Below the pieces are notes generated by a model. That model was not told the DNA's origin. It did not search any database and saw only the letters and a list, made by a program, of their open reading frames with translations. The position numbers were made by a program, and so were the translations under genes. From NCBI GenBank assembly GCA_048571035.1, contig CP121329.1, forward strand, positions 2,978,455 through 3,042,454: DNA of 64,000 nt, in the 5' to 3' direction. Below are positions 22,992 to 39,403 of the stretch, piece by piece; within the stretch, counting starts at the first letter, position 1, and every line of letters begins with the position of its first letter. Source of the stretch: Gammaproteobacteria bacterium. GTDB lineage: Bacteria; Pseudomonadota; Gammaproteobacteria; Pseudomonadales; Azotimanducaceae.

Positions 22992-23049
22992 AACTTCAAA
23001 CCTAAAAACCTGGTGACTTTTGCCAGAAATGAAAACTGAGGATAATGAC

Positions 23050-23541
23050 ATGACCGCTATTGATGATTTTCTAGCCAACAATGCTGCTTACGCTGATACC
23101 TTTGGAAAAGGCTCATTACCCATGCCACCTGCAAAGCAGATTGCAGCAGTGGTGTGTATGGATGCGCGAATGGAGACGGGTGCGATGCTGGGTCTCTCGG
23201 AAGGCGATGCACACGTGATCCGCAATGCGGGGGGTGTCGTCACTGACGATGTCATTCGCTCTTTGACTATTTCACAGCGACTGCTGGGTACCCGGGAGAT
23301 CATGCTTATTCACCATACTGATTGCGGCATGCTCACTTTCAAAGATGCTGACCTCAAGCAGGCAATTTTCGACGACATTGGCCTGAAGCCGCCTTTTGCC
23401 ATGGAAGCATTTGAGGACGTTGATGCTGATGTGCGCCAGTCTTTAGCCAGGGTAAAAGCCAGTCCGTACATTCCGCACAAAGATCAGGTGCGCGGTTTTG
23501 TCTTCGAAGTAGAGAGTGGACAGCTCAGAGAAGTGACTTAG
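23050..23541 (+). CDS. Beta-class carbonic anhydrase
   Basis: CMDAR, RNAGG, HHTDCG zinc ligands; start placed at MTAIDD. Confidence 0.92.
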   Translation: MTAIDDFLANNAAYADTFGKGSLPMPPAKQIAAVVCMDARMETGAMLGLSEGDAHVIRNAGGVVTDDVIRSLTISQRLLGTREIMLIHHTDCGMLTFKDADLKQAIFDDIGLKPPFAMEAFEDVDADVRQSLARVKASPYIPHKDQVRGFVFEVESGQLREVT

Positions 23542-24838
23542 ACGCATTGTTATCGAGAAGCACAACAGGCGCGAACCCTCCGCCTGGCGTGCGAAAATTT
23601 GTGGTCTGCCCCTGGTAGACCCTTGCCGCAAGAAGCTGTATCTCGCCGTTGTACGTGAACGCTCGGACATCATACTTAAGCGCCTTACCTGAAGCGTCTA
23701 TCCAGCGGGAAGGCGTCTGCACCATATCCTGTGCAATGTAACTGCCATCTCTGAGACCCAATATTTCATTCCAAACTCGTCGTGTCAGCTTCGCACCGCG
23801 ATAAGCGCCGCGGCCCGCAAAGCCATCTGCAGGTTTGAAAAATAACCCCTTTCGATTCAGCCAGAGGTCAGCGCTGTTATCTGCAGTGACTAACCATGTT
23901 CGCGGTATCGTGTTGAGAACAGCGTTCGCTTTGTCAGACAGACCTTTGCGCAGCAGATGCTGTTGGGCAGATAACAGCGCCAGATTGCGTTTGTCAGCAT
24001 ACTGAGCGTGGTGCGCCGGTGATGGGCTGACAACCACCGCGTCAGACAACCATGCGTCGCGTAATAATCTGTTAGCAGGATCAGCAAAATAGAAGTCGGT
24101 GAGGCGATTGTAAACCAGGCCAATGGCGGCTCCCTGGAGTGTTAACTGGTCGTTGTGAATATTCAGTTCTTCTGGGTCCGCGACATATACCTTTATGCCG
24201 TAATCCTCAAAATATTGTCGCGCGAGGACAAAGTCCGGGTGCAAGAACTGTGTCTGAGGTGCCTCATCAACGATGGCTAGTGTTCGAGGAATACCACTCC
24301 GACCTGCATGGTGCCATTCTTTGATCAGCATATTGAACATCCACGCAGGATCTGCGTGGCCGCCCCACTTGCCACCGCAGAAAGGCATATCAGATAAGCT
24401 GTTGTAGAGGTTATGAACGATAAATGCGCCGCCGGCGTTGGTGTTGATTTCTATGAGTCGTGGGCCCTCACGGGTCATATGAAAGTCGTATCCCATGAAC
24501 AGGCCGGGCGTAAATTCGCCTCGGCAAACTTTCTTCGAAATCGCCTTGTGCTGGTCGTTAGAGCGCAGGTGGATAATTTCTTCAAACTGAGGGGTACGGA
24601 AAACTCGCTCAATACTGCCAATCAGTTCCTGCATGTCTGATAAATCTGCCGGGCATAAAAACACCGGAGATCCGGCAAACATAACCGGGCGCTGTGCCAA
24701 TGAAGTTTGCAGTTCGAGGGACGCGCCAGCGATGCTCTCTGCCACTTTGTTGGAATCGATAGGCATGCAGGCGCATGTTTCATTCAGATGCTCAATACGC
24801 TCTGCGCCGTCAGGCTTGCATTGGGCGGCACAGCTCAT
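23525..24838 (-). CDS. Uncharacterised ATP-grasp ligase (glutathione synthetase/GspS-like, circularly permuted type)
   Basis: GYDFHMTREGPRLIEINTNAGG, FFKPADGFAGRG, YIAQDMV, KYDVR, TTNFRTPGGGFAPV; ATG overlaps the ArsR TGA. Confidence 0.75.
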   Translation of the reverse strand: MSCAAQCKPDGAERIEHLNETCACMPIDSNKVAESIAGASLELQTSLAQRPVMFAGSPVFLCPADLSDMQELIGSIERVFRTPQFEEIIHLRSNDQHKAISKKVCRGEFTPGLFMGYDFHMTREGPRLIEINTNAGGAFIVHNLYNSLSDMPFCGGKWGGHADPAWMFNMLIKEWHHAGRSGIPRTLAIVDEAPQTQFLHPDFVLARQYFEDYGIKVYVADPEELNIHNDQLTLQGAAIGLVYNRLTDFYFADPANRLLRDAWLSDAVVVSPSPAHHAQYADKRNLALLSAQQHLLRKGLSDKANAVLNTIPRTWLVTADNSADLWLNRKGLFFKPADGFAGRGAYRGAKLTRRVWNEILGLRDGSYIAQDMVQTPSRWIDASGKALKYDVRAFTYNGEIQLLAARVYQGQTTNFRTPGGGFAPVVLLDNNASKSLL

Positions 24839-25158
24839 TGCAATGCATCTTTGAGGGGTTGGCAGATCTGTGGGTGAGAACAGCAACAGTCTTCCATGAG
24901 GAATCCGAGGAGTCCTGTCATTTTATTGTAGTTCGCGGAGTAGATTATTTGCCTGCCCCTGCGTTCAGACTGCACCAAACCCGCGTTTTTCAACACTAAC
25001 AGTTGAGCAGATGCGGTTGTGGGTCCAATTTCAGCCTGCGTGGCCAGATCACCTGCGTTCATACCGTCTGGACCAGCTTGAATTAGCCAGCGCACCAATG
25101 TCAGGCGGCCTTCATGTGCCAGCGCGCTCAAAGTATCAACAGCGTTATCTATATTCAT
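24835..25158 (-). CDS. arsR: ArsR/SmtB repressor with C-terminal cysteine cluster
   Basis: LSALAHEGRLTLVRWLI, SAQLLVLKNAGLV, YSANY, EDCCCSHPQIC. Confidence 0.88.
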   Translation of the reverse strand: MNIDNAVDTLSALAHEGRLTLVRWLIQAGPDGMNAGDLATQAEIGPTTASAQLLVLKNAGLVQSERRGRQIIYSANYNKMTGLLGFLMEDCCCSHPQICQPLKDALQ

Positions 25159-25188
25159 ATTTCATTAATACATGGAATGATGAAATAT
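25157..25188 (-). promoter_or_regulatory. Probable ArsR operator
   Basis: Perfect 9-bp inverted repeat ATATTTCAT-N14-ATGAAATAT abutting the arsR start codon. Confidence 0.6.
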
Positions 25189-25285
25189 AGCAAGGTAAGC
25201 CCGCAATCGCGCCCGTATTCGGTTTTGTGGCGAGTGATAAACTCATCGAATAATAGCCATCCGTCCCAACAGGAAAGAGAACGCC

Positions 25286-25669
25286 ATGCGCGAATTGGAA
25301 ACGAACAAATCAAACGCTCAAGCTTTCTATGACTTGATGTTCAATGAATGCAAGCCTCGTGAAGCCATCGAATATTTTGTAGGCGAAGAATACATACAAC
25401 ATAATCCTGAAGTGGCGGATGGCAAAGAAGGGTTCATAGCGTATTTCGAGCGGATGGCAGTTGAGTACCCTGGCAAAAAGGTTTACTTCAAACGAGCGAT
25501 CGCGGAAGCCGATCTGGTTGTTTTACATTGCCACCAGGTTTGGCCTGGAGATCGGAACTATGCGGGGATTGATATTTTTCGCTTTGATAGTGACGGCAAG
25601 ATTGTCGAGCACTGGGATGTTCTCCAGGTTGTTACGATCGAATCGAAGAACGACAACGGACTGTTTTAG
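25286..25669 (+). CDS. SnoaL-like/NTF2 family protein
   Basis: YIQHNPEVADGKEG, DIFRFDSDGKIVEHWDV. Confidence 0.9.
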   Translation: MRELETNKSNAQAFYDLMFNECKPREAIEYFVGEEYIQHNPEVADGKEGFIAYFERMAVEYPGKKVYFKRAIAEADLVVLHCHQVWPGDRNYAGIDIFRFDSDGKIVEHWDVLQVVTIESKNDNGLF

Positions 25670-25803
25670 ATAGCCAAATCACCGGCTCTGGTGTGGGCAG
25701 CCTTAGTCGTAATGCAGAGCGCCTGCGTTGTCTACTGACACCATGTTGTCAGGAGCCCTGTGTAATAGTTGGGTAATACTCGAGACTATTAGGGGATTGC
25801 AAA

Positions 25804-26400
25804 GTGAAACACTATTACCATCCAATGAGCCGGGCGGTGACTACCCACTGGATGCTCACAGAACTTGATGCCGAACATGAGCAGATTGTTATCGATTTCC
25901 ATGCTGGTGAAAACAACACACCGGAATATCGTGCGATAAATCCGATGGGCAAGATCCCTGCATTGGTAGACGAAGACGTAGTGATTACGGAAACCGCAGC
26001 AATTTGCGCATACCTGGCTGACAAGTTTGCAGGCAATGGAATGGCGCCAGATGTGGGTACATACCAACGCGGCAGTTATTATCGATACTTGTTCTACCCC
26101 GGTACTACCCTGGAGCCTATGTTTACCTTCAACCAACTGGAAGTTGAAAACCTCTCGCCCCAGTCAACCGGATGGGGTGATCTTGAACGATGCCTGCAGA
26201 CCATTGAACAGATGACGCCAGAAGCTGATTGGGCGTTGGGTCCGCAATTCACCGCTGCAGATGTTGTATTTGGAGGGACATTAGACTTCGCTGTTCAATT
26301 TGGATGGTTGAAGACACCGAGTCCGAAGGTCGCATCTTATGTTGGGCGTATCAAAAAGAGGGATGCGTACCGCCTGAGTCATGACGAATCGTGGCACTAA
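25804..26400 (+). CDS. Glutathione S-transferase family protein
   Basis: PMSRA, INPMGKIPAL, TETAAICAYL, FTAADV. Confidence 0.9.
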   Translation: MKHYYHPMSRAVTTHWMLTELDAEHEQIVIDFHAGENNTPEYRAINPMGKIPALVDEDVVITETAAICAYLADKFAGNGMAPDVGTYQRGSYYRYLFYPGTTLEPMFTFNQLEVENLSPQSTGWGDLERCLQTIEQMTPEADWALGPQFTAADVVFGGTLDFAVQFGWLKTPSPKVASYVGRIKKRDAYRLSHDESWH

Positions 26401-26482
26401 CAGTTAGCGTGAGATGCTGAGATAGCTGATACGTATTTTCACTAATCACGAGTGTGATGTACGAAGTATTAGACTGGCTGAC

Positions 26483-27166
26483 ATGTTTGAGGAGTTTGCG
26501 CCATCTCTTTACGTAGCCGACGGGCCGGATGTGTCTTTTTATGGTTTTCCGTACCCTACGCGCATGGCTGTGGTCAAACTCTCGGATGGTAGTACCTGGG
26601 TATGGTCGCCTGTGGCGTTAACTGAAGAACTCTTCAAATTTGTAAACGATCTCGGGCCGGTGCGTCACATTGTCTCTCCGAATAAAATTCATCACCTTTT
26701 CCTCGCCGAATGGGCCAATCGGTCACCACAAGCTCGCATGTATGCGCCGCCTGGTCTCGCGAAAAGGCGGCCAGATCTGCGTTTTGACGCGGAACTCGGA
26801 GATGAGCCCGACGCGGCATGGGCGGCCGATATTGACCAGGTAATTTTTCGAGGCTCACTGGCAATGGAGGAAGTTGTGTTCTTCCACCGCGAGTCGCGTA
26901 CAGCGATAGTCTGTGATCTCATCCAGCGCCATCCGGAATCAGCGATGACAGGCTGGAAAGGCATGCTGATGAAATTGGATAACCTCGTCGGTGAACATGG
27001 CAGTACGCCGCGTGAATGGCGAGCCAGTTTCCTGCGCCGTAGCAAAGCTCGGTCAGCGCGTGCAAAGGTGCTGGGCTGGAATCCCGAACGCTTGTTGATT
27101 GCTCATGGCGAATGCGTAAAAACTAATGCGTCTACGATAGTTAAGGAGGCATTGAGTTGGATGTAA
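26483..27166 (+). CDS. DUF4336 family protein (metallo-beta-lactamase-like)
   Basis: YPTRMAVVKL, IVSPNKIHHLF, EEVVFFH, LIAHG. Confidence 0.85.
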   Translation: MFEEFAPSLYVADGPDVSFYGFPYPTRMAVVKLSDGSTWVWSPVALTEELFKFVNDLGPVRHIVSPNKIHHLFLAEWANRSPQARMYAPPGLAKRRPDLRFDAELGDEPDAAWAADIDQVIFRGSLAMEEVVFFHRESRTAIVCDLIQRHPESAMTGWKGMLMKLDNLVGEHGSTPREWRASFLRRSKARSARAKVLGWNPERLLIAHGECVKTNASTIVKEALSWM

Positions 27167-27184
27167 GGGGCTGCCAGTGGACAT

Positions 27185-27224
27185 AAGAGTCTAATTCGAA
27201 TAGTTGGTGATCAGAGACAGAATC
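27185..27224 (-). repeat. Distal att-like copy of the tRNA-Phe 3' end plus flank
   Basis: 34/40 identical to 34739-34778, sharing the core CAGAGACAGAATC. Confidence 0.85.
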
Positions 27225-27284
27225 AGCCGCCAATTTTTGCATAGGCTATACTGCGTTCTTCGTGTGCACTAAAAAGGGGAGATC

Positions 27285-28040
27285 ATGCGGTTTATCGCGC
27301 GATTGGTGCTTATGATCGGAGTGTTTTCCCCGGCTTGGGGAGAACTACCCGCCGAAAAACGGGTGTTGATAGTTGTGTCAAATGTCATTGATATGGGTGA
27401 TGCCGAAGCTCACGATGCCCGCAATAACCTCTGGGAGGTGGCTCCTCCATATCATGTCTTTCTCGCCCACGGCTACGAGGTCGACTTCGTTTCACCGAAA
27501 GGCGGCGCTGTTCAGTTTTCGATGGACCCTGTCGGCATCAGTAGCTACACAATAAAATACGAAGGATTCGCGGATCGAGCGAGCGCCTCACTCGGACCGT
27601 CCAAAGTAGATTCGAGCAAATACAGTGCCGTATTTATCGGCGGTGGGTACGGACCGCTATTTGACGTGGCATCAGACCCGGCACTTCTATCTTTGATTGC
27701 TGCGATCTATGAGGCTGGCGGTGTCGTAGGAGGTTGTGGTCACGGGCCGGGCGCTTTTGCAAACGTGGTTCTGAGCGATGGTCGCTTCATGGTGGCCGGA
27801 AAAAAAGTAGCGGGGTTTCCAAACTCCACAGAAAGATCGAAGTCTTGGGCCAAGCAAGGCGAGCTGTTGCCATTTCTAGTTGAAGATCAGCTGCGTAAAA
27901 ATGGCGCTAAGGTTATCAACAAAGAAAATATTGCGGACAAGACTGATGTCATCATTGATCAGCGAATCGTGTCCACAATGTTCCTGCCATCCGCGACCTG
28001 GGTCGCCAAGGAGATGATCAAGCTAATCGATGGCCATTGA
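27285..28040 (+). CDS. Secreted DJ-1/PfpI (type 1 glutamine amidotransferase-like) protein
   Basis: WEVAPPY, VDFVSPKGG, IGGGYGPLFD, GCGHGP; signal peptide. Confidence 0.85.
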   Translation: MRFIARLVLMIGVFSPAWGELPAEKRVLIVVSNVIDMGDAEAHDARNNLWEVAPPYHVFLAHGYEVDFVSPKGGAVQFSMDPVGISSYTIKYEGFADRASASLGPSKVDSSKYSAVFIGGGYGPLFDVASDPALLSLIAAIYEAGGVVGGCGHGPGAFANVVLSDGRFMVAGKKVAGFPNSTERSKSWAKQGELLPFLVEDQLRKNGAKVINKENIADKTDVIIDQRIVSTMFLPSATWVAKEMIKLIDGH

Positions 28041-28081
28041 TCTAGATGGTCCCATAACAAGTCACAAAAGACTGACTGGAT

Positions 28082-28154
28082 GTGTCCGCTTCTGGCCGAA
28101 AGCGGAATTAAATATAGCTCCTTATAACTTCCGCTTTCGACCCAAAACAGACTG
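28082..28154. repeat. Two-hairpin palindromic element, copy 1
   Basis: GTGTCCGCTTCTGGCCGAAAGCGGAA, spacer, ACTTCCGCTTTCGACCCAAAACAGAC. Confidence 0.85.
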
Positions 28155-28163
28155 ACGAGGAGC

Positions 28164-28667
28164 TTAGGTGTCAACTCCGTACCCTTTTAAAATTGAGCTT
28201 CTTTCAGCCGTATTAACCAGTACATCGACAAATTCTGTGAAATCAACTTCGTACAAATGGCGCCTTGATTCCCATAGCAGCTGACCAGAGGCGCTCGAGA
28301 AGTGAAGCCCCATATTTGCGACTAAGGGCTTCAGTTTGGCCTCATCGAGAAGACCTAGTTCAAATTGATGGTGGGCAGACTCTACCGACCTGAGAAGAAC
28401 GAGCATCCAGCTGTTGTATCGAAGCGTCTCAATCTCACTTAGCTCTCCGTTTGCTACACCCCTTTGGATGATCTCGATCAGTTCGGCGTCTCCCACCATT
28501 TGAAGCACAGCCTCATTTAAGCCGTTAGCAATGGAATCGAATGTCTGTCCTCGCACTGCCCGAGAATTTTCTCGCACCTGTATTCCCACATAGAAAAGTG
28601 ATGCCACAACTGCAATTGCTCCAGCTAACTCAGCAAACGCCCCTACCGCATCCCAATTCATATTCAT
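28164..28667 (-). CDS. Hypothetical membrane protein, MNW[DE]A-type family, paralog 1
   Basis: MNWDAVGAFAELAGAIAVVASLFYVGIQVREN; GGGGAG SD before ATG 28667. Confidence 0.75.
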   Translation of the reverse strand: MNMNWDAVGAFAELAGAIAVVASLFYVGIQVRENSRAVRGQTFDSIANGLNEAVLQMVGDAELIEIIQRGVANGELSEIETLRYNSWMLVLLRSVESAHHQFELGLLDEAKLKPLVANMGLHFSSASGQLLWESRRHLYEVDFTEFVDVLVNTAERSSILKGYGVDT

Positions 28668-28745
28668 GTATGTATCTCCCCTGTCGCCCAACGATGAATT
28701 AGACCAAAGTATGCAGCGAGTTCGACTTGCCTGCATCGAATCTTG

Positions 28746-28820
28746 ATGTCCGCAGTTGGCCGAAAGCGGAAGTAAATATCTACAGACGAAAAGGTCTGCT
28801 ATCGACCCGTACCCGACATT
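28746..28820. repeat. Two-hairpin palindromic element, copy 2
   Basis: ATGTCCGCAGTTGGCCGAAAGCGGAAGTAAATAT...GGTCTGCTATCGACCCGTACCCGACATT; 21/22 match to copy 1 over GGCCGAAAGCGGAAnTAAATAT. Confidence 0.85.
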
Positions 28821-28859
28821 TTGCATTAATGGCATACTCGCCAGAAAGTTGGAGAAATA

Positions 28860-29330
28860 GTGAACTGGGATGCATTAGGCGCCATCGGGGAGATTATTGG
28901 AGCTGGAGCTGTTGTTGCATCGCTCGTGTATTTGGCTGTTCAGATCAGAACCCAGAATAGAGAGACACGATTGAGTGCTATGCACGATCTATCGGTTGGA
29001 TTCCGGGAAGCGATCATTCCGTTTTCTGCGGAAGATATGTCCACCATTCTCGTGAAAGCGAACGAAGACTACGATTCTCTCTCTGACATTGAGGCCCAAA
29101 GGATCATTGTACTTATGGGGCAATTCTTTCGTGCATGGGAAGAAGCATTCATACAGCATCAGGAGGGACGATTAGATGAACGGCATTGGAACGCAATACT
29201 GAAGTACTACGTGAAGCTTCTAGGTGCACCTGCAATGCGAGTCGGTTGGGGGCTACGGAAAGCGTACATGGATGATGAGTTTGCTGCGTTTGTTGATAGC
29301 TTACCACTGGAAGAATACAAGACACGGTGA
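28860..29330 (+). CDS. Hypothetical membrane protein, MNW[DE]A-type family, paralog 2
   Basis: MNWDALGAIGEIIGAGAVVASLVYLAVQIR; GGAG SD before GTG. Confidence 0.78.
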   Translation: MNWDALGAIGEIIGAGAVVASLVYLAVQIRTQNRETRLSAMHDLSVGFREAIIPFSAEDMSTILVKANEDYDSLSDIEAQRIIVLMGQFFRAWEEAFIQHQEGRLDERHWNAILKYYVKLLGAPAMRVGWGLRKAYMDDEFAAFVDSLPLEEYKTR

Positions 29331-29460
29331 CAGCCGTTAGTTGCGCTAAAGAATGGTAGACGTTGTTGTCACTGAAAGTCTTGCTGACAGGATGGCTTGA
29401 TGCCGCAGTGGGCTGCCAACCGCCTGTTTTGAAGCCCTGCATCATCATGCTTGAAGACCA

Positions 29461-29530
29461 TTCCCGGGGAAGCGGTCACTCAGCCGAGCCGATTTCGTAC
29501 GACGGAAGACGACCCATTTCTACCGTTCGT
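29461..29530. repeat. Two-hairpin element, copy 3 (reverse orientation)
   Basis: AAGCGGTCACTCA (29470-29482) and CGACCCA (29510-29516) are shared with 30962-31006. Confidence 0.7.
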
Positions 29531-29581
29531 CGTTCCAGCTGTTTTGATATAGCCTTCCCCCTTCACCAGTGGAGGAAATCA

Positions 29582-30067
29582 ATGGATCATCAGACTTTCG
29601 CGGAGTTATTAGGCAACTATGGGGAATTCATTGGGTCAATCGCCGTGCTCGCGACGCTGGCTTACCTTGCAGCTCAGGTACGGAACTCCAACAAGTACGA
29701 AGCGGCCAAACACATCGACGTTCACATGGACCGAATTCGCGAGCGATTCCTCATGGTCGCGCAGAACGAAGACCTTGCCAGAATCGACCGCATTGCTCAT
29801 GAGGGAGGCAGCTTAGACCAAGATGAGAAATGGAGGTGGCGTGCACTCACCATACATCACATCCTCTGTATGCGTGACGCGTGGATGAGAGCTGACAGCC
29901 TGGGCGGTCTTCCGGGCCGGCCACCCCACTTCTACTTGGATATGCTGGCTGATCTGATCAAGCAACGGCCTGCCATGCGCGAAGTCTGGGACAAGGAATC
30001 ACCTGACAACCCGGCCTGGTCACATGAATTCGTTAGTTACGTCAATCTGAAACTGGCGCAAGAATAA
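29582..30067 (+). CDS. Hypothetical membrane protein, same family, paralog 3
   Basis: LGNYGEFIGSIAVLATLAYLAAQVR; GGAGG SD before ATG 29582. Confidence 0.75.
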   Translation: MDHQTFAELLGNYGEFIGSIAVLATLAYLAAQVRNSNKYEAAKHIDVHMDRIRERFLMVAQNEDLARIDRIAHEGGSLDQDEKWRWRALTIHHILCMRDAWMRADSLGGLPGRPPHFYLDMLADLIKQRPAMREVWDKESPDNPAWSHEFVSYVNLKLAQE

Positions 30068-30100
30068 GCGGTAGTGGCGCGCGGCAAATCTGCCTTTGAC

Positions 30101-30187
30101 GTGGCAGCTTCTGACCGTTCAGAGCCAGTTAGGTCGCGTTTATGGGTTTTCTGCATTTAATGTCGGCTTTCGGGAGAGTCGCGCCCG
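30101..30187. repeat. Two-hairpin element, copy 4 (degenerate)
   Basis: GGCAGCTTCTGACCGTTCAGAGCC...AATGTCGGCTTTCGGGAG. Confidence 0.6.
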
Positions 30188-30218
30188 AGCGAATGAAAGG
30201 AGCGGCTTTAACTGCATG

Positions 30219-30689
30219 TTAGAGATCGGCGCGCTCACAGTTCACTAATTCGCCTGGTTCGACAAATATAGCGGTCGCGATTCTCCATCGATCTGACTTA
30301 AACAATGTGTAAGTTCCACCGCTGATTGTCTCTGCACCATCCTGAAATATCCTTTTAAGCCGAAAGCTAAAAATCGCAACATTCTGGGAGAGCTTACAGG
30401 TCGAGGTTTCCCCGTATTCGCTTCTCACCCAGCCAGCTCTACCAATATCGGCGAGCATAGCCTCCATCCACTTTTCAGCATCTTGGTGAGAGCTGAAATT
30501 TAGGATCTCGGCCGGGGTTATGAACATGGCTGTCGGGTTAAAGTAGTTTCCTACCAATTCTTTAGCGCTATAGCCCTTGTTAAAGTCGACGAGGTAAGAC
30601 TTCATCGTCCCCGCAACGTCATCGCTAGCGCTTATGGTTCCGCTCTGCAGGAATAAGAAGAGAAAGACAATAAATGTGTATCTGCGCAT
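30219..30689 (-). CDS. Secreted NTF2/SnoaL-like hypothetical protein
   Basis: Signal peptide MRRYTFIVFLFLF..., C-terminal GGTYTLFKSDRWRIATA. Confidence 0.6.
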   Translation of the reverse strand: MRRYTFIVFLFLFLQSGTISASDDVAGTMKSYLVDFNKGYSAKELVGNYFNPTAMFITPAEILNFSSHQDAEKWMEAMLADIGRAGWVRSEYGETSTCKLSQNVAIFSFRLKRIFQDGAETISGGTYTLFKSDRWRIATAIFVEPGELVNCERADL

Positions 30690-30866
30690 GATGCTCCTTC
30701 TGATGTCTAACACCACTTATATGGATTCTGGGGTCCGTATAAAATGGGTCGTGAGTGATCTGATTTGAGTGCCATTCTCCTCTACCCATCAAGAACTTCG
30801 AGCACACTACACCAGTACTAGAATCCCAGCAAAAGCTTACAGAGAATTGAGAGTCAATATTTGTGC

Positions 30867-31020
30867 GCGAATGACTGAAGTTGGCCGTTCAGCGACGATT
30901 GATCACAGAGATTGAACGGCGGCTTTGTGGAATAGTTCGAGTAGATTCTAGAATATCTCCAAAGCGGTCACTCAAACCGCTTGGGCGAGCGGCAAAAAAC
31001 GACCCAGAACAGTCATTCGC
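30867..31020. repeat. Palindromic element cluster, copy 5: one unit plus an inverted two-unit element
   Basis: GCGAATGACTG at 30867-30877 and its perfect reverse complement at 31010-31020; GAATGACTGAAGTTGGCCG is 16/19 to 32524. Confidence 0.75.
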
Positions 31021-31146
31021 CAACAGACACTGAAATGGCGGGAAAAGCCTGAATAAATGCCCATACACCGCGAATTGGCTAGCTCTTTTAGCGGTCGCCA
31101 AGTGCATGTCCACGCGATAGAGTTAGCTATGTCATAGGGGATAACG

Positions 31147-32529
31147 ATGGCGGATGTCTTTGTATCATACGATTCAGACGATCGTGCACGGGTTGAGCCT
31201 CTAGTCCGCGAATTAGAGACCGCTGGGTTTGAGGTCTGGTGGGATCGACAGATAAACGCAGGGGAAAGTTTCGACAGGACTATCGAGCAGGAATTGTCTT
31301 CTGCCTCGTGCGTCCTTGTGGTTTGGTCAAAAAACTCCATCGATTCAGATTGGGTGCGCGAGGAAGCTGAAGAGGGTCAGCGCCGTGGCATCCTGATCCC
31401 CGTCCTAATCGACGAATGTCAGATTCCATTAGGTTTCCGGCGCGTTCAAGCTGAGCAGTTGATCGATTGGCCGGATAGTTCGTTGAACGCATCTAGCCTC
31501 ACCAGCCAGATAGCCGCGCTGATCCAAAAAGAGCCACTATCAGCTGCAGGTCATAGAAAGCCAAAATCTCGGCGTCGTATTCTCATCGTTGGGAGTCTGT
31601 CAGCTGTCGTACTGCTGATCGGCGGTTACCTGTACAGCGGTGCCATTATCGGTGGAGTGGTGATGAATGCACCGAAAAGATATTTCGGTGAGCCTATTGA
31701 TCAGCAACTTGGTGTCGCAACCTCTGCAGATGGCACACGGATAGCCTATGCGCTTTCAGGCGATGGTCCGCCTTTAGTCTACGTACTTGGATGGATGACT
31801 CACCTTGAAAAGGGGTTTAACAGTCCTGTTTATGACAATGAACTGCTTGTGGAGATGACCTCACGAAATCACAGATTCTTGCGCTACGACGGGCGGGGTT
31901 TCGGCATGTCTCAGCGCAGCGTTAAGGATTTTTCCCTTACGGCTCGCGTCGCGGATCTTAAGGCGGTCGTCGATGCCGCTGGTTTCAAGCAATTTAGAAT
32001 CCTGGCGGCTTCATCGGGAGGCCCTGTTGCCATCGCGTTCACCGCTCAATACCCAGACAGAGTCAACGGACTTGTATTGGGAAGCTCGTTTGCGTCCAAC
32101 TCATGGGTTACTGAAGAGGAGCGTGAAACGGCAGATCAATTTTGGAGCCTCATTGAGACATCGTGGGATATGTTCCCACCCGTCTCGGACATGTTCGCCA
32201 ATATGACGCTTGCGCCCACAGGAGATATGGTAGAACAGGGGGTTCTAGGGTCGATGTTGCGTCGCTGCTGTAACGGGCCAAACGTTGCGAACTACTTCCG
32301 AGAAACGACTCGATTGGATGTCAGGGAGCAGGCCAAGCGAATCAAAGTGCCTACGCTCGTGATACATGCTCGTGACGATCAAGCGACACCGCTAGAGGGA
32401 GGAAAAGAGTTGGCGTCCTTAATTCCTGGGGCCCGTTTCCAAATCGTGGAGGGCGGCCATCGTGAGGGGACGGCGAGCACAGCAGAAACGCGCCAGTTGG
32501 TTCTGAACTTCTTGGATGTAATTGAATGA
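31147..32529 (+). CDS. TIR domain - TM helix - alpha/beta hydrolase fusion
   Basis: DVFVSY, EVWWD, SDWVREEA (TIR); RRRILIVGSLSAVVLLIGGYLY (TM); LRYDGRGFGMS, AASSGG, HARDD, GGH (hydrolase). Confidence 0.85.
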   Translation: MADVFVSYDSDDRARVEPLVRELETAGFEVWWDRQINAGESFDRTIEQELSSASCVLVVWSKNSIDSDWVREEAEEGQRRGILIPVLIDECQIPLGFRRVQAEQLIDWPDSSLNASSLTSQIAALIQKEPLSAAGHRKPKSRRRILIVGSLSAVVLLIGGYLYSGAIIGGVVMNAPKRYFGEPIDQQLGVATSADGTRIAYALSGDGPPLVYVLGWMTHLEKGFNSPVYDNELLVEMTSRNHRFLRYDGRGFGMSQRSVKDFSLTARVADLKAVVDAAGFKQFRILAASSGGPVAIAFTAQYPDRVNGLVLGSSFASNSWVTEEERETADQFWSLIETSWDMFPPVSDMFANMTLAPTGDMVEQGVLGSMLRRCCNGPNVANYFRETTRLDVREQAKRIKVPTLVIHARDDQATPLEGGKELASLIPGARFQIVEGGHREGTASTAETRQLVLNFLDVIE

Positions 32530-32600
32530 CCGTTGTTGGCCGAATACGGCCCCTTTTGAGGGTTACTGCTAAAGTCGGTTTTCGACCCAAAACGCTCGTT
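32524..32600. repeat. Two-hairpin element, copy 6
   Basis: GAATGACCGTTGTTGGCCGAATACGG...AAGTCGGTTTTTCGACCCAAAAC; TTTCGACCCAAAAC is identical to 28135-28148; contains the TIR gene stop codon. Confidence 0.8.
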
Positions 32601-32618
32601 CAATACAGGTCGGCGCGC

Positions 32619-33533
32619 TCAGTGCTCAGCAACAAACTCTGCGAGTTCCGCTTGGAGGAACTCTTGGAGTGCGATCACTGCTGCGGTATAGCCGCGTCGT
32701 CGGGACATAACTAAATTGAGATGTGCCCGGCCCACATGCCACTCTGGCAACACTTTGATCAACTGACCGGATGCCAATTCGTCCCTGCACGTGTAAGCAG
32801 GTAGCGCCACGATACCGAGGCCTTCAGTTGCGGTTTGCTTCAAGGTGGCCATATCGTCGCTCTTTAACCTGGGTTCAATTTGAACATATTTTTTCTCACC
32901 AGATTTGTGTTCCAGTTTCCAGCGCTCGCCCGCGGCTTGCCAACCAAGGACAAGCGTCTGTTGGTTCTCGAGATCTGATGGTGTCGCAATCGATTTTTCC
33001 GTATTTGAATAGTGGGGTGAGGCAAACAAGTTCCATTCAACAACCGCTAGCGGTCTCTGTACCAGCGTTGAGTCAGGCAGTGGGTCAGTGTGTCCACGGA
33101 TCGACATATCAATACCGGCGGCGACGAGATCAACGGTCTGGTTTGTCACCTGTTGCAGCACTGTGACTTGTGGATTGTCCGCCAGAAAACGAGCCAATAA
33201 TTCTTTCAGCACGAACTGAGCAACACCGACCGAACAACTCAGGGAGACTTTTCCGGACAAGGTGTTTTTCTTACGTTTAAGTGCAGCCTCAGCAAGTTCT
33301 GTTTGGTCGACCGCAGCGCGCGCATGTTGGTAGAAGACCTCGCCAAGCTCGGTGATTTTAGATTGGCGAGTCGTCCGTTGGATCAAGATTGCATCCAGAC
33401 GCTCCTCTAGCTGTGCGATATGCCTGCTCAGTCTTGATTTGGGAATCCCTAGCGCTTCGGCTGCGCGCGTAAACCCTCCTTTTTCGACCACGTGCACAAA
33501 GTAGTAGTAGTCGTTTAAATCGATAGGTGCCAT
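32619..33533 (-). CDS. LysR-type transcriptional regulator
   Basis: GFTRAAEALGIPKSRLSRHIAQLEERL helix-turn-helix. Confidence 0.93.
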   Translation of the reverse strand: MAPIDLNDYYYFVHVVEKGGFTRAAEALGIPKSRLSRHIAQLEERLDAILIQRTTRQSKITELGEVFYQHARAAVDQTELAEAALKRKKNTLSGKVSLSCSVGVAQFVLKELLARFLADNPQVTVLQQVTNQTVDLVAAGIDMSIRGHTDPLPDSTLVQRPLAVVEWNLFASPHYSNTEKSIATPSDLENQQTLVLGWQAAGERWKLEHKSGEKKYVQIEPRLKSDDMATLKQTATEGLGIVALPAYTCRDELASGQLIKVLPEWHVGRAHLNLVMSRRRGYTAAVIALQEFLQAELAEFVAEH

Positions 33534-33650
33534 TGGAACCCCGGGCTCGATTGTTCTGAATATAGGATTATATATTCTAATACTGGCTCTACTAGCTCTA
33601 ATTGTCCTGCTTTTATACTTACTGCGAGCTTAACCAACAGGATTTAGAAT

Positions 33651-34550
33651 ATGAACGCCATCAACACCGCAGGTAATCAAAGCTTCAAATCTGGAAAAAT
33701 GGCTGCCTTATCCGAGCCATTACACGGAACAGATCTCTCGATCGGAAATGGTTTCGAAGCACAGAGTTTCCGAGCTCAAGAAGTCGGACAACTTATGGAT
33801 CCGTTAGTGATGGTCGATCATTATGTGATGACCGCACCTACTTTTGGAGCACACCCTCATGCAGGTATGTCTGCGGTGTCATTGCTGTTCGAAGACAGCG
33901 AGGGCCTTTTTCACAACCGTGATTCACTCGGCAATGATTTTGATCTGCGGCCTGGGGATCTGTATTGGCTCAAAGCAGGTAGTGGTGCTGTTCATGATGA
34001 ATCACCGCGAGTTGATGCTCGAACTCACGGATTGCAGGTATTCGTTAACGTACCTCAGGCCCAACGCTTCGAGGATCCTGAGTCGATCTTAGTTCGAGCT
34101 GAAGATATGCCGGTGATCAGCAACGAAGAATATCGTGTAAAGATCGCCTTGGGTGAATCCAATGGCGTTAGCGGTGCAATTTCTCCGTCAATCCAAATGA
34201 CCATATTGGATGGCGCTATCCAACCGGGCGGACGTTTTGCGTATGAGTCAACCTCGAATCGAGGCATTTGGATTCAAGCAGTGGCGGGAAATCTGGTTAT
34301 CGTCGTCGAGGGGGAGGTTAGGTCCTTGAATCAGGGTGAGGCACTTGCCGTCAGCGCGACCAGGGCGGCTGACATTGGGATCAATAATCCGTCCCATGAG
34401 TCCGTGCACTTTGCCTTGTTCGATGGGGAACAGATTGATGAATCCTATGTGCAAGATGGTCCCTTCGTAATGGGATCCAAAGAAGAGATCGCAGATATCA
34501 AAGTCGCTTACGAAGCGGGTCAATTAGGCTTGATCGCAGACAGCGTCTGA
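33651..34550 (+). CDS. Pirin family protein
   Basis: DPLVMVDH, FGAHPHAG, GAVHDE, QVFVN, GPFVM. Confidence 0.92.
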   Translation: MNAINTAGNQSFKSGKMAALSEPLHGTDLSIGNGFEAQSFRAQEVGQLMDPLVMVDHYVMTAPTFGAHPHAGMSAVSLLFEDSEGLFHNRDSLGNDFDLRPGDLYWLKAGSGAVHDESPRVDARTHGLQVFVNVPQAQRFEDPESILVRAEDMPVISNEEYRVKIALGESNGVSGAISPSIQMTILDGAIQPGGRFAYESTSNRGIWIQAVAGNLVIVVEGEVRSLNQGEALAVSATRAADIGINNPSHESVHFALFDGEQIDESYVQDGPFVMGSKEEIADIKVAYEAGQLGLIADSV

Positions 34551-34569
34551 CACTCTCCATTTTGATTCA

Positions 34570-34644
34570 AACGATCGCAAATAGCCGAAATCTGCCGTCC
34601 AATCCGATTTTGAGCATGACCGCTTAGAAGTGATTAGCAGTCAT
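34570..34644. repeat. Two-hairpin element, copy 7, next to the att region
   Basis: ACGATCGCAAATAGCCGAAATCTGCC...ATGACCGCTTAGAAGTGATTAGCAGTCAT (hairpin). Confidence 0.6.
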
Positions 34645-34658
34645 GCAAGTAAGAAGTG

Positions 34659-34683
34659 ATAGATGATGGGCAGAGACAGAATC
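34659..34683 (-). repeat. Proximal att-like copy of the tRNA-Phe 3' end
   Basis: ATAGATGATGGGCAGAGACAGAATC vs ATAGATGGTGGCCAGAGACAGAATC (23/25). Confidence 0.8.
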
Positions 34684-34758
34684 AACCTGCAACCGCGTTT
34701 TGGTGACACAGTGTCGACAGAAAGGCGTGCCTAAACACAAGAGTCTGATTTAAATAGA

Positions 34759-34834
34759 TGGTGGCCAGAGACAGAATCGAACTGGGGACACGGCGATTTT
34801 CAGTCGCCTGCTCTACCAACTGAGCTATCTGGCC
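34759..34834 (-). tRNA. tRNA-Phe (GAA), 76 nt, CCA encoded
   Basis: Acceptor stem GGCCAGA/TCTGGCC, D arm GCTC/GAGC, anticodon stem GGCGA/TCGCC with loop CTGAAAA, T loop TTCGATT; T stem has 2 mismatches. Confidence 0.92.
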
Positions 34835-34874
34835 ATTTACCACGTGCAGTCGCACGGGTTCTGAAGAGCGGCGT

Positions 34875-34903
34875 ATTAAAGCGGGGTGATCCGCGTGCGT
34901 CAA
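34875..34903 (-). promoter_or_regulatory. sigma70 promoter of the tRNA gene
   Basis: TTGACG-N17-TTTAAT followed by a GC-rich discriminator-like sequence. Confidence 0.7.
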
Positions 34904-34937
34904 CCGTCATGAGGCTGGAATTTGTGAGTTCTTCTGC

Positions 34938-35213
34938 CTAACCCTTTGGCGGTGCTACATATCCTTCTGCTCGATCCACTTCCTCATTGGCAAAAAACAG
35001 CCACATCTGCTCGCTGAGGTATTTGCGTGCGTCCGGGTCCAGCAGCTTCAGATGTTTCTCATTGATCAGCATGGTTTGCAGGTTCTGCCATTCAAGCCAG
35101 GCTTTTTTTGAGACTTCTTTGAAAATACGCTCTCCCGCAGCGCCTGGTATAGGCGGCTTTTCCAGGCCTTCCAGCTCTTCGCCATAGCGGCTGCACATTA
35201 CGGTTCGGCTCAT
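34938..35213 (-). CDS. yggX: Oxidative damage protection Fe(II)-trafficking protein
   Basis: [30 protein letters not shown]. Confidence 0.95.
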
Positions 35214-36283
35214 GATGTAAAAGGCTCTTTTAGACTGGCCAGTAGTTTAACCGCTGGGGCGGAAAGGCCAATGGCCTGGTTTTCGCCATTTATGTGCTCA
35301 GGATTAACCCAGCGCAGGGTGTCTTCGCCGATGTAAGAGTCTGGCAGGTCATCAAGGGTGATGTACACAGGTTCAATATCCAGGTGGAAGTGAGTAAAGG
35401 TGTGACGAAAAACGGGGGCAACGTGCTGCCGTTCAACCTGGGTTGAACGGATCTGTAGTTCGTCGAGGAATGTATCTACAGATGTCGAGATGTCTCGTTC
35501 CGGTGGCGTCCATAAGCCGCCCCATAATCCATTCAGCGGTTTCCTCTCCAGAAGCGTGACTTTGTTTGTCAGCGAAAGCACAAAAAAGCGTGCCTGGCGC
35601 ACTGGTTTTTCTTTTTTGGGTTTGCTGGCTGGGTAGTCTGCAATCGTATTGTTGATTCTGGCCATACAATTGGCTTGCAGTGGACAAATTGAGCAACCTG
35701 GATTGCGCCGGGTGCAGAGAGTTGCACCCAGGTCCATAATTGCCTGGGTGAAATCTGCTGTGCGCTCCGGGGGAGTGTGTTCGTCTGCTTGTTGCCAAAG
35801 TTGTTTGGCTACGTCGGTTTTGCCGGGATAGCCAGAAACGGCATGAAATCGGGTCAGCACCCGTTTCACATTGCCATCCAGAATGGTTGCCTGCTGATGC
35901 ATCGCTATAGCTCGGATTGCGCCGGCAGTAGAGCGGCCGATGCCGGGTAGAGCTTCAAGCTCAGACTGGGTTTCTGGGAAATGACCGTTGTGTTGTTCAA
36001 CGATTGCCTGCGCAGACTTGTGCAGATTGCGCGCACGCGCGTAGTAGCCCAGGCCGGTCCACAGATGCAAAACGTCATCAAGGGGCGCGCGAGCTAATGC
36101 TGCAACATCGGGAAAGCGCTGCATAAAACGCTGGTAGTAGTCGATGACCGTCGCCACCTGAGTCTGCTGCAACATGATTTCAGACACCCACACCCTATAA
36201 GGGTTGATGTCCTGTTGCCAGGGCAGATCTTTACGCCCGTGCTGGTCAAACCACGTCAGCAGCTGTTTCGCGAACCAATCCAT
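35210..36283 (-). CDS. mutY: A/G-specific adenine glycosylase
   Basis: [50 protein letters not shown]. Confidence 0.97.
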
Positions 36284-36289
36284 ATACGG

Positions 36290-37825
36290 TTAAGGTTGCT
36301 CTTTGTTGTCCAGTGCACGTCCGAGGATGTCCAACAGGCCGCGTGCGGTTTCTCTATATTCTTCCGGTACTTCTTCGTCGATTTTCTGTTCGAGCTTTTT
36401 CCGCAAGCCAGAGTCGTCTCCGCTTTGCAGGGCTTTGGCTACAATACTCTGCGCTGCGTTGCGGTCTAGTTTGCAGGTCGGGTCTGCAGAAGCGCCTGTG
36501 CATCGAATGGGAATAGGTGTGCCTTCCAGCAGCGGATTGATGGTGAACGGGTTGTTCTCCGGTGCGGTGTTAACCGTTACATTGGCCAGCATGTCAATGG
36601 TGTCAGCGGCATAGTCATACTTGCCGTTAGCATCGACGCTCATGTGGTCGAGGGCAAACTGAAGGCTGTGCAGTGCACCGTCGATGTTCCAGCGGCCGGT
36701 AAATTGTTCGTAGTTCCATATATCCGGCCAGGTAGCTGCACGATCTGTTTGTCGTGTAACTGCCGCGATCTGCATCAACTGAGCTTTGATCTTGGAAATA
36801 TTCAGCTGTCCCTGTCCGCCATTGAATTGGGTAGCAGCCTTAACCGAGGCCATAAGCTGTTCTTCGGTGTTGCCGCGTAGTGTGAGTTTGGAATTCATCG
36901 CGATAGGTGCAATCCACTGCAGGCGCTGATCTGTCCAGTCAATCAGGCGCTGGCTATCGACGCCAGTCACCTCAGGCAATATGGTCCACAGTGGTGCCGG
37001 TTTGGTGGCATCAATGTCGACGTCGCTTGCCAGGCTCCCGCCGAGAAAATCGTCGATATTGAGCATAACGTTCAAGCGACCAGCGGTATTGGTGATATCG
37101 ATGTGGCTGTCGGTGAAGGTTTCGCTGCCGACAACAAGCTCCGAAAGGTTGCAGTCCGCGCTGAAGTTGTAGCTTACGAGCGTCGCGAGAGGCAGTAAAT
37201 CGTCTTCGCCCTCTGCGGGCAGTTTTGCTGGCGCAAGGGGGTTGTCAGTAGCCTCTGCCTGACAAATACCTGTGGCCATGTCAGAAGTGATGTGCCCATC
37301 TTTTAAGATAATGCGCTGAGGTTGATCGGCGGTTGCAGGTGTATAGGTAACAAGGCCATTGAAACGTGCCGCGAGGGGTTCTGCGCCCGCTTCGCTGGTA
37401 TGCACAACATCTGCAAACACGGCTGCCGGTTCGCCGAGGCGGAAGTCTTTCACTTCCAGCTTGTTCAGTAGTGTGCTGGCACCATCGGCGTTGTATGTTG
37501 TGTCCAGCAGGGTCAGCTCAGTAACGCGCCACTGATTGATGTCGTTCCACATGGCAGAAAGGTCCATGTTCAGCTGTAACGTGCCTGCGGTAATGTCTTC
37601 ATCCGCAGTGCTGAGGCTCACGTCGGCTACATTCAAACTCAGCGGAGGGAACAGAGACCAGGAGACATCACCGTTAATGCGCGTGGTGTAGCCACTCTGC
37701 TCTGAGATCAATTGCTCGATCTCAGGTTTCAGTCGATTAGCGTCCTGCAGATAAAAGTAAGCGCCGATGGCCAGTGCCACCACTAGAGCCAGTAAGATTC
37801 CAAATATTCGGCCTAACACACCCAT
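36290..37825 (-). CDS. asmA: AsmA family protein
   Basis: N-terminal TM, GDVSWSLFPPL, IPIRCTG; usual position upstream of mutY. Confidence 0.8.
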   Translation of the reverse strand: MGVLGRIFGILLALVVALAIGAYFYLQDANRLKPEIEQLISEQSGYTTRINGDVSWSLFPPLSLNVADVSLSTADEDITAGTLQLNMDLSAMWNDINQWRVTELTLLDTTYNADGASTLLNKLEVKDFRLGEPAAVFADVVHTSEAGAEPLAARFNGLVTYTPATADQPQRIILKDGHITSDMATGICQAEATDNPLAPAKLPAEGEDDLLPLATLVSYNFSADCNLSELVVGSETFTDSHIDITNTAGRLNVMLNIDDFLGGSLASDVDIDATKPAPLWTILPEVTGVDSQRLIDWTDQRLQWIAPIAMNSKLTLRGNTEEQLMASVKAATQFNGGQGQLNISKIKAQLMQIAAVTRQTDRAATWPDIWNYEQFTGRWNIDGALHSLQFALDHMSVDANGKYDYAADTIDMLANVTVNTAPENNPFTINPLLEGTPIPIRCTGASADPTCKLDRNAAQSIVAKALQSGDDSGLRKKLEQKIDEEVPEEYRETARGLLDILGRALDNKEQP

Positions 37826-37867
37826 CGTGGGTCCATCTCAATAACAAGGGGCGCCTAGTATAGAGGT

Positions 37868-38191
37868 TTATGGATGACGGGTAGCTGAACGGCGAAAGAA
37901 ACGTAGGGTTGTCAGATTGCCCGGCGAACTTTTCCGTGGCGTTCCGCGTCCACGCCAGTTTCTGACTTGTTTGCGCAACGCTGCTTCCGCTGCTTCCTCA
38001 TTCGGGAACGGGCCGGCGTCCTGGTGGCCGCGTGCGCGGTAGTACCACTGACCCTCGTCCGTTTGATAAATGCGTTCGTCCACTTCCCCAGTCCTTATCT
38101 TCCGAAACGCGATATTCCGGATACTACTTGATCGGCAACGGTGTTCTGCTGACACGCTCTGTGTGATTATTATTGGATCACAGATGCGCAA
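37868..38191 (-). CDS. Small hypothetical protein (DUF6316-like)
   Basis: ERIYQTDEGQWYYRARGHQDAGPFPNEEAAEAAL; start uncertain. Confidence 0.5.
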   Translation of the reverse strand: MRICDPIIITQSVSAEHRCRSSSIRNIAFRKIRTGEVDERIYQTDEGQWYYRARGHQDAGPFPNEEAAEAALRKQVRNWRGRGTPRKSSPGNLTTLRFFRRSATRHP

Positions 38192-38307
38192 ACTCAGTGT
38201 ATTGTCTTTGTAACGGTTATATTAAAGAGCAAATGCGTCAGGTAAATAGCGCAAATATACTAATTTTGGATAAACCACTCAGGTTTTAGGCATTCTAGGT
38301 AACAAAT

Positions 38308-38700
38308 ATGACAGTTGATACGTTTGATCCATCCGCAATGGCTCAACCCCTCGATGCTCAGATGGTGGCTGCGCTTTGTGCCGCGGCGGAGATATCAGCT
38401 GATAATGAGCTGGTGTTGGCGGAGCTGGATGTTAAGCGGTTTGCGCCGATAGCGTCAGGTGGTGACTGGTCAGCGTTGGATGATCAACTGAGTGATGAGC
38501 AGGTGGCTCAGTTGATCCGTATTTTCACCCTCGGCGAGATGCAATTCAGCTCGTGGGCAGCGGGCGATAAATCGCCGGTGATTGCGTTGGTGCAACTGCT
38601 GAAACAGCGTGGTGTTTATGAGCCGGATATGACGCGCTGGATAAAAAGTAACACCACAAATCGGTTTCTACCTCATGGCAATCTGCTCAACCGTCTGTGA
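38308..38700 (+). CDS. Conserved hypothetical protein
   Basis: 130 aa; SPVIALVQLLKQRG...WIKSNTTNRFLPHG; upstream of hisB. Confidence 0.65.
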   Translation: MTVDTFDPSAMAQPLDAQMVAALCAAAEISADNELVLAELDVKRFAPIASGGDWSALDDQLSDEQVAQLIRIFTLGEMQFSSWAAGDKSPVIALVQLLKQRGVYEPDMTRWIKSNTTNRFLPHGNLLNRL

Positions 38701-38802
38701 AACGTTGCTGGAAGTGACCCAGTGCGTTGATTACGCTGCATATTTTGTGTGATCAGCGTAGAATCCGCGCTCTTTTTACAGCCATGCACACGAGAGTCAG
38801 TC

Positions 38803-39399: not shown

Positions 39400-39403
39400 A
39401 ACC

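Follow-up and report, generated by a model that had tools for sequence, protein, structure and literature searches.

A probable decayed genomic islet at a tRNA-Phe-linked attachment site in a gammaproteobacterium of the Azotimanducaceae

A stretch of 64,000 nucleotides from contig CP121329.1 (assembly GCA_048571035.1, positions 2,978,455 to 3,042,454) of a gammaproteobacterium of the Azotimanducaceae, here called the window, carries a tRNA-Phe gene together with two displaced copies of its 3' end, and between these copies lie 7,439 bp of accessory DNA. This segment, 27225-34663, is probably a decayed genomic islet without integrase that occupies an attachment site linked to the tRNA-Phe gene and is now fixed. 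Read in the direction of the tRNA, the order is mutY, yggX, tRNA-Phe, a trailer (F), a spacer (S), the middle copy of the tRNA end (M, or M* in its window variant), the cargo, the distal copy (D), a trailer-like flank (F'), the DUF4336 gene, and then GST, SnoaL, ArsR and further genes (Table 1). The initial annotation, made from the letters alone, described an integrase-less island defined by three copies of the tRNA-Phe 3' end. That interpretation is partly supported: it appears largely right, with corrections on three points, namely that the proximal edge lies at M, that M is an old feature, and that the cargo is pieced together from modules.

The core of the repeats, the 13-mer CAGAGACAGAATC, is exact at all three places initially reported (27212-27224, 34671-34683 and 34766-34778) and occurs exactly three times in the 64 kb. 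With one mismatch allowed, 4 occurrences were found against 0.10 expected, and 0 of 100 shuffles reached 4; the fourth (one mismatch) lies on the opposite strand at 29073. On the tRNA strand the 13-mer is GATTCTGTCTCTG, extending from the 3' half of the T-loop across the T-stem 3' strand into the first 3'-side bases of the acceptor stem. The last 20 nt of tRNA-Phe, beginning in the T-loop, recur in M* and D as direct copies of the same orientation. Beyond the 13-mer the tRNA copy, M* and D are no longer identical; the 7-nt arms running to the CCA are GGCCACCA, CCCATCA and ATCACCA, with 2 of 7 positions in D and likewise in M* deviating from the tRNA end and 4 differing between the two. Such divergent arms beside a common block are as expected for hybrid attL/attR sites.

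M* continues with TCTAT, the first bases of F, and D with a full F-like trailer. Ungapped, D and its flank agree with the tRNA end plus trailer at 38 of 47 positions (27178-27224 against 34732-34778), and the repeat-family alignment of the distal copy (D3) gives 84% over 44 nt. The 34/40 match first reported, with about 20 bp beyond the CCA, thus holds, the similarity reaching ~24-27 nt past the CCA. An nhmmer profile built from the tRNA 3' end and trailer of the window and of two relatives (L001 and L002, see below), with D excluded, recovers D with an E value of 1.9e-10 and the middle copy with 7.9e-4. Between F' and the stop codon of the DUF4336 gene are 14 nt more. Three marine-sediment sequencing runs (X48, X8 and X49) contain close relatives, and F' plus the D core are 37/40 identical to the tRNA-Phe end and trailer of one of these, on a 372-bp contig from X49, which argues that F' is a genuine tRNA-Phe trailer variant.

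That these copies are something other than attachment sites, either chance matches or relics of decayed tandem tRNA-Phe duplicates, is extremely improbable. The S-M unit does hold extra tRNA-like pieces (CCGTGTCG and an inverted CTGTCGACAC), which can be read as a degraded second tRNA, but chance is excluded by the shuffles and the nhmmer result, both fragments contain only the 3' part from the T-loop on and in direct orientation, and D consists of the last 20 nt plus trailer only. Furthermore, no relative among 47 loci obtained by a MutY scan has tandem tRNA-Phe genes here, and presence or absence of the intervening DNA coincides with the copies.

This polymorphism is seen in L173, a 1.56-Mb metagenome contig found by a protein search with DUF4336. 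Its gene order is MipA, MscS, further genes, ArsR, SnoaL, GST, a 149-aa open reading frame (ORF), DUF4336, tRNA-Phe, yggX, mutY and asmA, and blastn showed it to be colinear with window positions 19423-27180 plus 34689-42640 at 82-91% identity. Window positions 27181-34688 are absent from L173, both by blastn and in a three-way alignment of the junction. The interval between DUF4336 and the tRNA consists there of 9 nt, one perfect core (M), S and F. One core in the empty site versus two (D and M*) around the extra DNA is the signature of att-site integration within a short common core. The comparison with relatives for an empty tRNA-Phe site, proposed in the initial annotation, has therefore found one.

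The mutY-yggX-tRNA-Phe synteny holds across the order in the MutY-scan loci, and L001-L008 share one tRNA 3' end, GATTCTGTCTCTGGCCACCA. Of the relatives, L001 and L002 are the closest (MutY 89%); both possess the tRNA, F, S and M. Their alignment with the window, followed downward from 46000, breaks off precisely at the last base of M (34664); the synteny of L173 from the mutY side ends at 34689. Judged from these alignments, the proximal edge of the island is the middle copy M rather than the tRNA, so the 7.5-kb cargo first described as bounded by D and the tRNA is instead bounded by D and M. The distance between M and tRNA-Phe is 95-109 bp in each of the four related genomes (M lies 95 bp downstream in L001 and L002). 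Trailer F is 73-87% identical to those of L001 and L002, and S, present in four genomes, is 87-96% identical among the window, L001 and L002. M matches the tRNA 3' end at 20 of 20 positions in L001 (11599-11618), L002 (11601-11620) and L173 (8695-8714); the window M* has two substitutions relative to that end. Around this perfect M, identity is 62-77% for the adjacent F, 67-96% for S and 79-88% for the coding flank. A perfect M in three species points to conversion by the tRNA gene or to its repeated renewal through recombination. Because the unit of tRNA, trailer, spacer and M occurs in all four related genomes, M is an old scar, and the events that gave rise to M and D lie far apart in time. 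Of the at least two serial integrations initially postulated, one each for M and for D is indeed needed, although the two differ greatly in age.

Beyond M, L001 and L002 carry 5-6 kb of genes unrelated to the cargo. In L002 it is followed by HipA/HipB, a transporter fragment and an alkyl-sulfatase before the sequence rejoins the window at GST (26403), and in L001 by a different 5.8 kb, including genes for a methyltransferase, a LysR protein and an amidohydrolase, which rejoins only at 22330. The same junction base (34664, the last of M) thus borders variable DNA in three genomes; no cargo gene of the window is present at the tRNA-Phe locus of L001 or L002. The first ~50 nt after M are common to L001 (11619-11665) and L002 (11621-11668), after which the two diverge, and this common stretch contains a perfect palindrome, GTTTTCCGC-AA(A)-GCGGAAAAC, that has no copy in the window. 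The L001 and L002 species accordingly have an element end in common and differ in cargo. In L002 a decayed sequence resembling core plus trailer, TTCTGTCGTTGATACACCTTCAAATTGATGTGACTCTTGTG (14824-14866), lies in the orientation of the tRNA, 3.2 kb beyond M and immediately upstream of the gene for the sulfatase; its nhmmer E value of 0.3 gives no more than a hint of an old attR.

Two further sets of relatives bear on the use of this site. L006 has a gene with DUF6538 and Phage_integrase domains (11567-12724) that begins 78 nt after the identical tRNA-Phe 3' end, which makes the tRNA-Phe end a live integrase target in the clade. From directly after the integrase stop codon to its end (12725-12846), that contig consists of the tRNA end in inverted orientation with ~66 nt of flank, probably an assembly artefact of the contig end. 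Contigs from X48 and X8 follow the window sequence across DUF4336, F' and D as far as 27229, 5 nt past the 13-mer, and continue with GCAGG(T/C)GCGTTGTGGCGAC..., a spacer of the M type in place of the DJ-1 gene. The 1.7-kb X48 contig likely does not reach a tRNA, since it is not among the listed (longest) X48 contigs at a tRNA, and it probably represents another filling rather than a second empty site. None of the public sequencing runs holds the strain itself, the top share of sampled 31-mers being 0.17. The X48 relative (97% over GST and the start of DUF4336) lacks 90 nt at window 26474-26565, a deletion of in-frame length near the 5' end of DUF4336.

The course of events that we favour is as follows. 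A first integration at tRNA-Phe, predating the common ancestor of the four genomes, would have left F and S, a remnant of ~72-86 nt, with M at its end as a displaced fragment of the tRNA 3' end. M, or equivalently the regenerated tRNA end, would later have been reused as attB by a tyrosine integrase, with a second crossover inside the shared 13 nt placing new DNA between M* (attL) and D (attR). The integrase and any mobility genes would afterwards have been lost, and the content reshuffled module by module, with several breakpoints in a palindrome of ~70 nt. Alternatively, the second event may have come earlier, at the tRNA itself, and the F-S-M remnant have been added afterwards.

Several observations weigh against this scenario. 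The order of events may have been integration at M, or an older island may have been displaced outward when a newer element entered at the tRNA, with only four genus-level genomes to compare. L173 lacks the ~29-nt F' that follows D in the window, so it does not show the site exactly as it was before insertion, and a further short indel has to be invoked. As the initial annotation had noted, no recombinase ORF lies between the copies: a Pfam search detected no recombinase, mobility or phage protein and no excisionase among the eight ORFs taken as cargo genes, and no integrase, transposase or relaxase family among ORFs of at least 180 aa in the whole 64 kb, while tblastn with the tRNA-Phe-adjacent integrase of L006 found nothing in the window. 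Similarity to plasmid records is confined to single genes of housekeeping type, and the GC content of the island is not distinct. Finally, the cargo modules stand independently in other contexts in relatives, for which reason the content may not have arrived through the att sites at all.

The mosaic nature of the cargo is apparent from such contexts. The pirin protein has three other members in its 90% cluster. In L168, L169 and L172 the order is P450, LysR, pirin, 172 nt, DJ-1, a gene for a helix-turn-helix protein with two transmembrane (TM) segments and IS3 orfA, in a cysNC/TRAP neighbourhood; window 32581-34583 matches there at 93% and 27272-28043, the DJ-1 module, at 92%. L168 is another contig of the metagenome-assembled genome of L002, which hence carries LysR-pirin-DJ-1 away from tRNA-Phe. 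L170 and L171 have a 207-aa ORF, the gene for the 165-aa protein, LysR, pirin, a member of the small TM family and APH, with matches to window 30134-30887 (93%) and LysR-pirin 32571-34581 (94%), and lack the segment 30888-32570 with the TIR-hydrolase gene. The LysR-pirin module (32571-34583) occurs in three different contexts at 93-94% identity. The module with the paralog B gene (28801-29516) is 99% identical on a contig from X48 with foreign flanks. Overall, module identities in close relatives range from 92 to 99% with sharp, recurring ends, and the whole cargo as one unit was found nowhere else among the relatives and the plasmid and phage records searched. The cargo is thus a patchwork of modules that move independently. 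Since its genes sit as separate modules elsewhere, the initial view of an element that had merely lost its integrase no longer fits, even though an integrase is absent.

One candidate sign of circularisation was discarded. Pirin and DJ-1, the genes at the two ends of the cargo, are joined by 172 nt in L168 and L172, and the end spacers of the window sum to 173 nt. This circular permutation was rejected as evidence of a circle; only 60 nt upstream of DJ-1 align in the pirin-DJ-1 spacer, and weakly (p ~0.02-0.04). A search for core plus trailer in L168 and L170-L172 gave nothing above shuffles.

A mosaic of this kind raises the question of replacement guided by the flanks, in which the M unit and D with F' are old scars and the cargo was swapped by homologous recombination without an integrase, by way of tRNA-S-M on one side and DUF4336/GST on the other or through internal palindromes, as in 'flexible genomic islands'. 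We regard this as rather unlikely, albeit with several points in its favour. The modules are sharply bounded and recur elsewhere in relatives, including the genome of L002, and LysR-pirin and DJ-1 are more similar (92-93%) than the core flank is to L002 (88%). DUF4336 retains 80-87% nucleotide identity even in unrelated contexts and could supply homology for recombination, X48 and X8 keep D with a different inner neighbour, and some module breakpoints fall in the palindrome. However, replacement alone explains neither the one core copy of L173 versus the two of the window nor the start of variable DNA at the last base of M in three genomes, and earlier site-specific events would still be needed for M and D.

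The palindrome itself, here called the e element, has arms of the form ...GTTGGCCGAAAGCGGAAGT on the left and ACTTCCGCTTTCGACCCAAAAC on the right. Within the window it occurs inside the island only, in three copies of one orientation; the other 56 kb of the window, L001, L002 and L173 have no copy, and there is no Rfam match. L170 and L171 carry three to four copies in 6.4 kb, between almost every gene. Three of the eight module breakpoints (28801, 30887 and 32571) are inside e element copies, and the TIR-hydrolase indel has an 8-bp box, GTTGGCCG, at each end (30880-30887 and 32534-32541). Folding was better than that of shuffles for 2 of 4 tested copies. Two assignments were rejected: an integron attC site, because the geometry is GTT...AAC on both strands and not RYYYAAC...GTTRRRY, and a genome-wide repetitive extragenic palindrome, given the absence of the element outside the island in the window and from L001, L002 and L173. 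The position of the e element at module edges may be regarded as a lead.

The preferred reading, a decayed islet at a tRNA-linked site, also has to be set against continued mobility. The initial annotation had offered service in trans as an option, and a satellite that is still excised and integrated by a tyrosine integrase encoded elsewhere, with M* and D as attL and attR, could in principle use the 13-nt block shared by all copies as crossover region; integrases do target the tRNA-Phe end in the clade. It is nonetheless very unlikely, and service in trans found no support: the repeats share 13 exact nt only and their arms have diverged (2 of 7 positions each from the tRNA end, 4 from each other), neither an excisionase nor another element-borne factor is present among the cargo ORFs, and the cargo unit occurs nowhere else. 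With divergent arms, no recombinase and mosaic content, the islet would now be fixed and is most likely immobile. Another thought, that M is a conserved 'decoy' att site which spares the tRNA, combined with cassette shuffling of a non-integron type at the palindrome with GTTGGCCG as crossover box, seems to us quite unlikely; it draws on the 20/20 identity of M in three species while the surrounding non-coding DNA differs by 4-38%.

Islands recorded in the Islander database, which tyrosine integrases insert into tRNA or tmRNA genes, are delimited by a regenerated tDNA at one end and a displaced fragment at the other, sites in the T-stem region form one of the two major classes of tDNA sites, and in tandem arrays each island needs its own fragment and integrase (PMC4383910). 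The islet resembles islands of this T-stem-region ('J') class: an intact tDNA on one side faces a displaced, directly oriented 3' fragment on the opposite side, the duplicated block extends from T-loop/T-stem past the CCA, a relative has an empty site, and two fragments stand in tandem. It differs in that no integrase or other mobility gene is present, that the proximal boundary is a secondary fragment, M, and that the cargo is a patchwork. Because the integrase is missing, the islet is a remnant and not an Islander member in the strict sense. Neither does it qualify as an integrative and conjugative or mobilizable element, as the cargo proteins include no relaxase, type IV secretion system, coupling protein or oriT-associated gene product, or as a prophage or satellite, with no match among 50,697 phage records and no phage Pfam families in the cargo.

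Additive 'flexible genomic islands' beside tRNA genes have reportedly been described in marine gammaproteobacteria in work on Alteromonas. The present locus is similar as a tRNA-adjacent hot spot with differing small gene sets of no obvious common function, and differs since no integrase is left and att copies can still be recognised at its boundaries. Integron cassette arrays include attC clusters without integrase, and there are likenesses to these as well: modules of single-gene size are separated by a repeated imperfect palindrome, the same modules stand in differing orders between genomes, and the box GTTGGCCG is found at both ends of the TIR-hydrolase indel. Unlike integron arrays, the islet has palindromes of GTT...AAC geometry, mixed gene orientations and three clear copies only, and no intI was detected in the window, either among the cargo ORFs or among ORFs of at least 180 aa.

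The tRNA-Phe gene of the window deserves separate mention. The 5' strand of its T-stem reads CCCAG (GA to CC at 34785-34786) versus GACAG in L001-L008 and L173, which breaks the pairs 49:65 and 50:64. With 54.3 bits, its Rfam tRNA score falls short of the 72.1 bits of relatives but still exceeds the gathering score of 29, and the cloverleaf makes up 4.5% of the structural ensemble against 53% in relatives. These substitutions fall just beyond the repeated block. The anticodon stem carries a separate, compensated change from G-C to C-G.

Some other candidates around the tRNA were set aside. A fourth match resembling the tRNA end (28355-28379, minus strand, TCTGCCCACCATCAATTTGAACTAG, 21/25, nhmmer E 0.003) was judged to be due to chance because it lies in frame in paralog A, in a stretch whose protein sequence is conserved with paralog B. 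RNAalifold on four genomes gave zero compensatory pairs for a conserved RNA structure in F-S-M. In a metagenome scan the M/D-specific 17-mer GGYTGATTCTGTCTCTG hit more than 120 loci, none with a CCA-type continuation and all ascribed to chance, and a scan of IMG/VR for the 20-nt core as attP gave no match.

Among the eight cargo genes, four have no Pfam match. Paralogs A-C are proteins of ~160 aa with an N-terminal hydrophobic helix, 27-55% identical over aligned stretches. This small TM family has no Pfam or PADLOC match and more than 5,000 representatives at the 50% cluster level; relatives are encoded beside pirin in L170 (5740-6246) and in L010 at ~14350-14604, 1.2 kb downstream of tRNA-Phe. 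Homologs of the TIR-hydrolase protein retain the hydrolase but have another N-terminal domain in place of TIR, either PF00211 (class III nucleotide cyclase) or PF00486 (winged-helix, DNA-binding), and this suggests a family in which a sensor-like hydrolase fold is coupled to different cytoplasmic outputs. In PADLOC only its TIR domain matches, to TIR-containing models (best PDC-S66, 5.6e-13, residues 3-74); PADLOC identified no partner gene and no match for the seven other cargo proteins, hence no complete Thoeris-like or TIR defence system. Exact-protein look-ups of the window YggX and pirin found neither on record. Elsewhere in the window, a TonB-dependent receptor is split into two overlapping ORFs, 15117-17207 (plug and first part of the barrel) and 17141-18160 (rest of the barrel), which looks like a frameshifted pseudogene or a sequencing error.

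Table 1. Coordinates of the islet, its flanks, cargo genes and repeats (window positions unless a contig is named)
Feature	Position	Strand	Remarks
DUF4336 gene	26483-27166	plus	Pfam; distal chromosomal flank
F', trailer-like flank of D (ACTATTCGAATTAGACTCTTATGT...)	27178-27204	minus	abuts 3' end of DUF4336 gene
Distal copy D, core GATTCTGTCTCTGATCACCA	27205-27224	minus	18/20 relative to tRNA end
Cargo, 7,439 bp	27225-34663		absent from L173
DJ-1/PfpI family gene	27285-28040	plus	Pfam
e element, copy 1	28083-28153	plus	imperfect palindrome of ~70 nt; fold z -4.0
Small protein with N-terminal TM segment, paralog A	28164-28661	minus	mechanical ORF to 28835; probable start 28661
e element, copy 2	28747-28817	plus	holds left breakpoint of paralog B module (28801)
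Small protein with N-terminal TM segment, paralog B	28860-29330	plus	
Small protein with N-terminal TM segment, paralog C	29582-30067	plus	mechanical ORF start 29363
e element, fragments	30871-30887, 30153-30172, 31000-31016		
165-aa protein	30219-30716	minus	no Pfam match; signal-peptide-like N-terminus
TIR domain, hydrophobic (putative TM) stretch and alpha/beta hydrolase	31147-32529	plus	Pfam
e element, copy 3	32526-32599	plus	holds left breakpoint of LysR-pirin module (32571-32581)
LysR-family regulator	32619-33533	minus	Pfam; divergent from pirin
Pirin (bicupin)	33651-34550	plus	Pfam
Middle copy M*	34659-34690	minus	core 34664-34683, GATTCTGTCTCTGCCCATCA, then TCTAT
Spacer S	34691-34734	minus	between trailer F and middle copy; scrambled tRNA-like pieces CTGTCGACAC, CGTGTC
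Trailer F, 24 nt 3' of CCA (TCTATTTAAATCAGACTCTTGTGT)	34735-34758	minus	repeated beside distal copy D
tRNA-proximal repeat core	34759-34778	minus	last 20 nt of tRNA-Phe gene
tRNA-Phe(GAA)	34759-34834	minus	ARAGORN; sole tRNA called in the window
yggX and mutY	34938-35213 and 35210-36283	minus	conserved anchor upstream of tRNA-Phe
e element, relatives	L170 2857-2921, 3662-3734, 6293-6364; L171 also 5802-5867		

The islet is another example of a well-known type of feature and leaves the understanding of integrative elements unchanged. With one empty site and three different fillings at one base in four related genomes, the locus illustrates, neatly and on a small scale, how integration sites linked to a tRNA gene turn into lasting hot spots of accessory genes once the mobile element has decayed. 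For annotation it means that repeats of tRNA fragments still mark real insertion boundaries where no integrase is present, and that such a boundary may lie at a secondary fragment instead of the tRNA. Closer attention could be worthwhile for the perfectly kept secondary att copy, the modules bounded by palindromes and the tRNA-Phe with its weakened T-stem.

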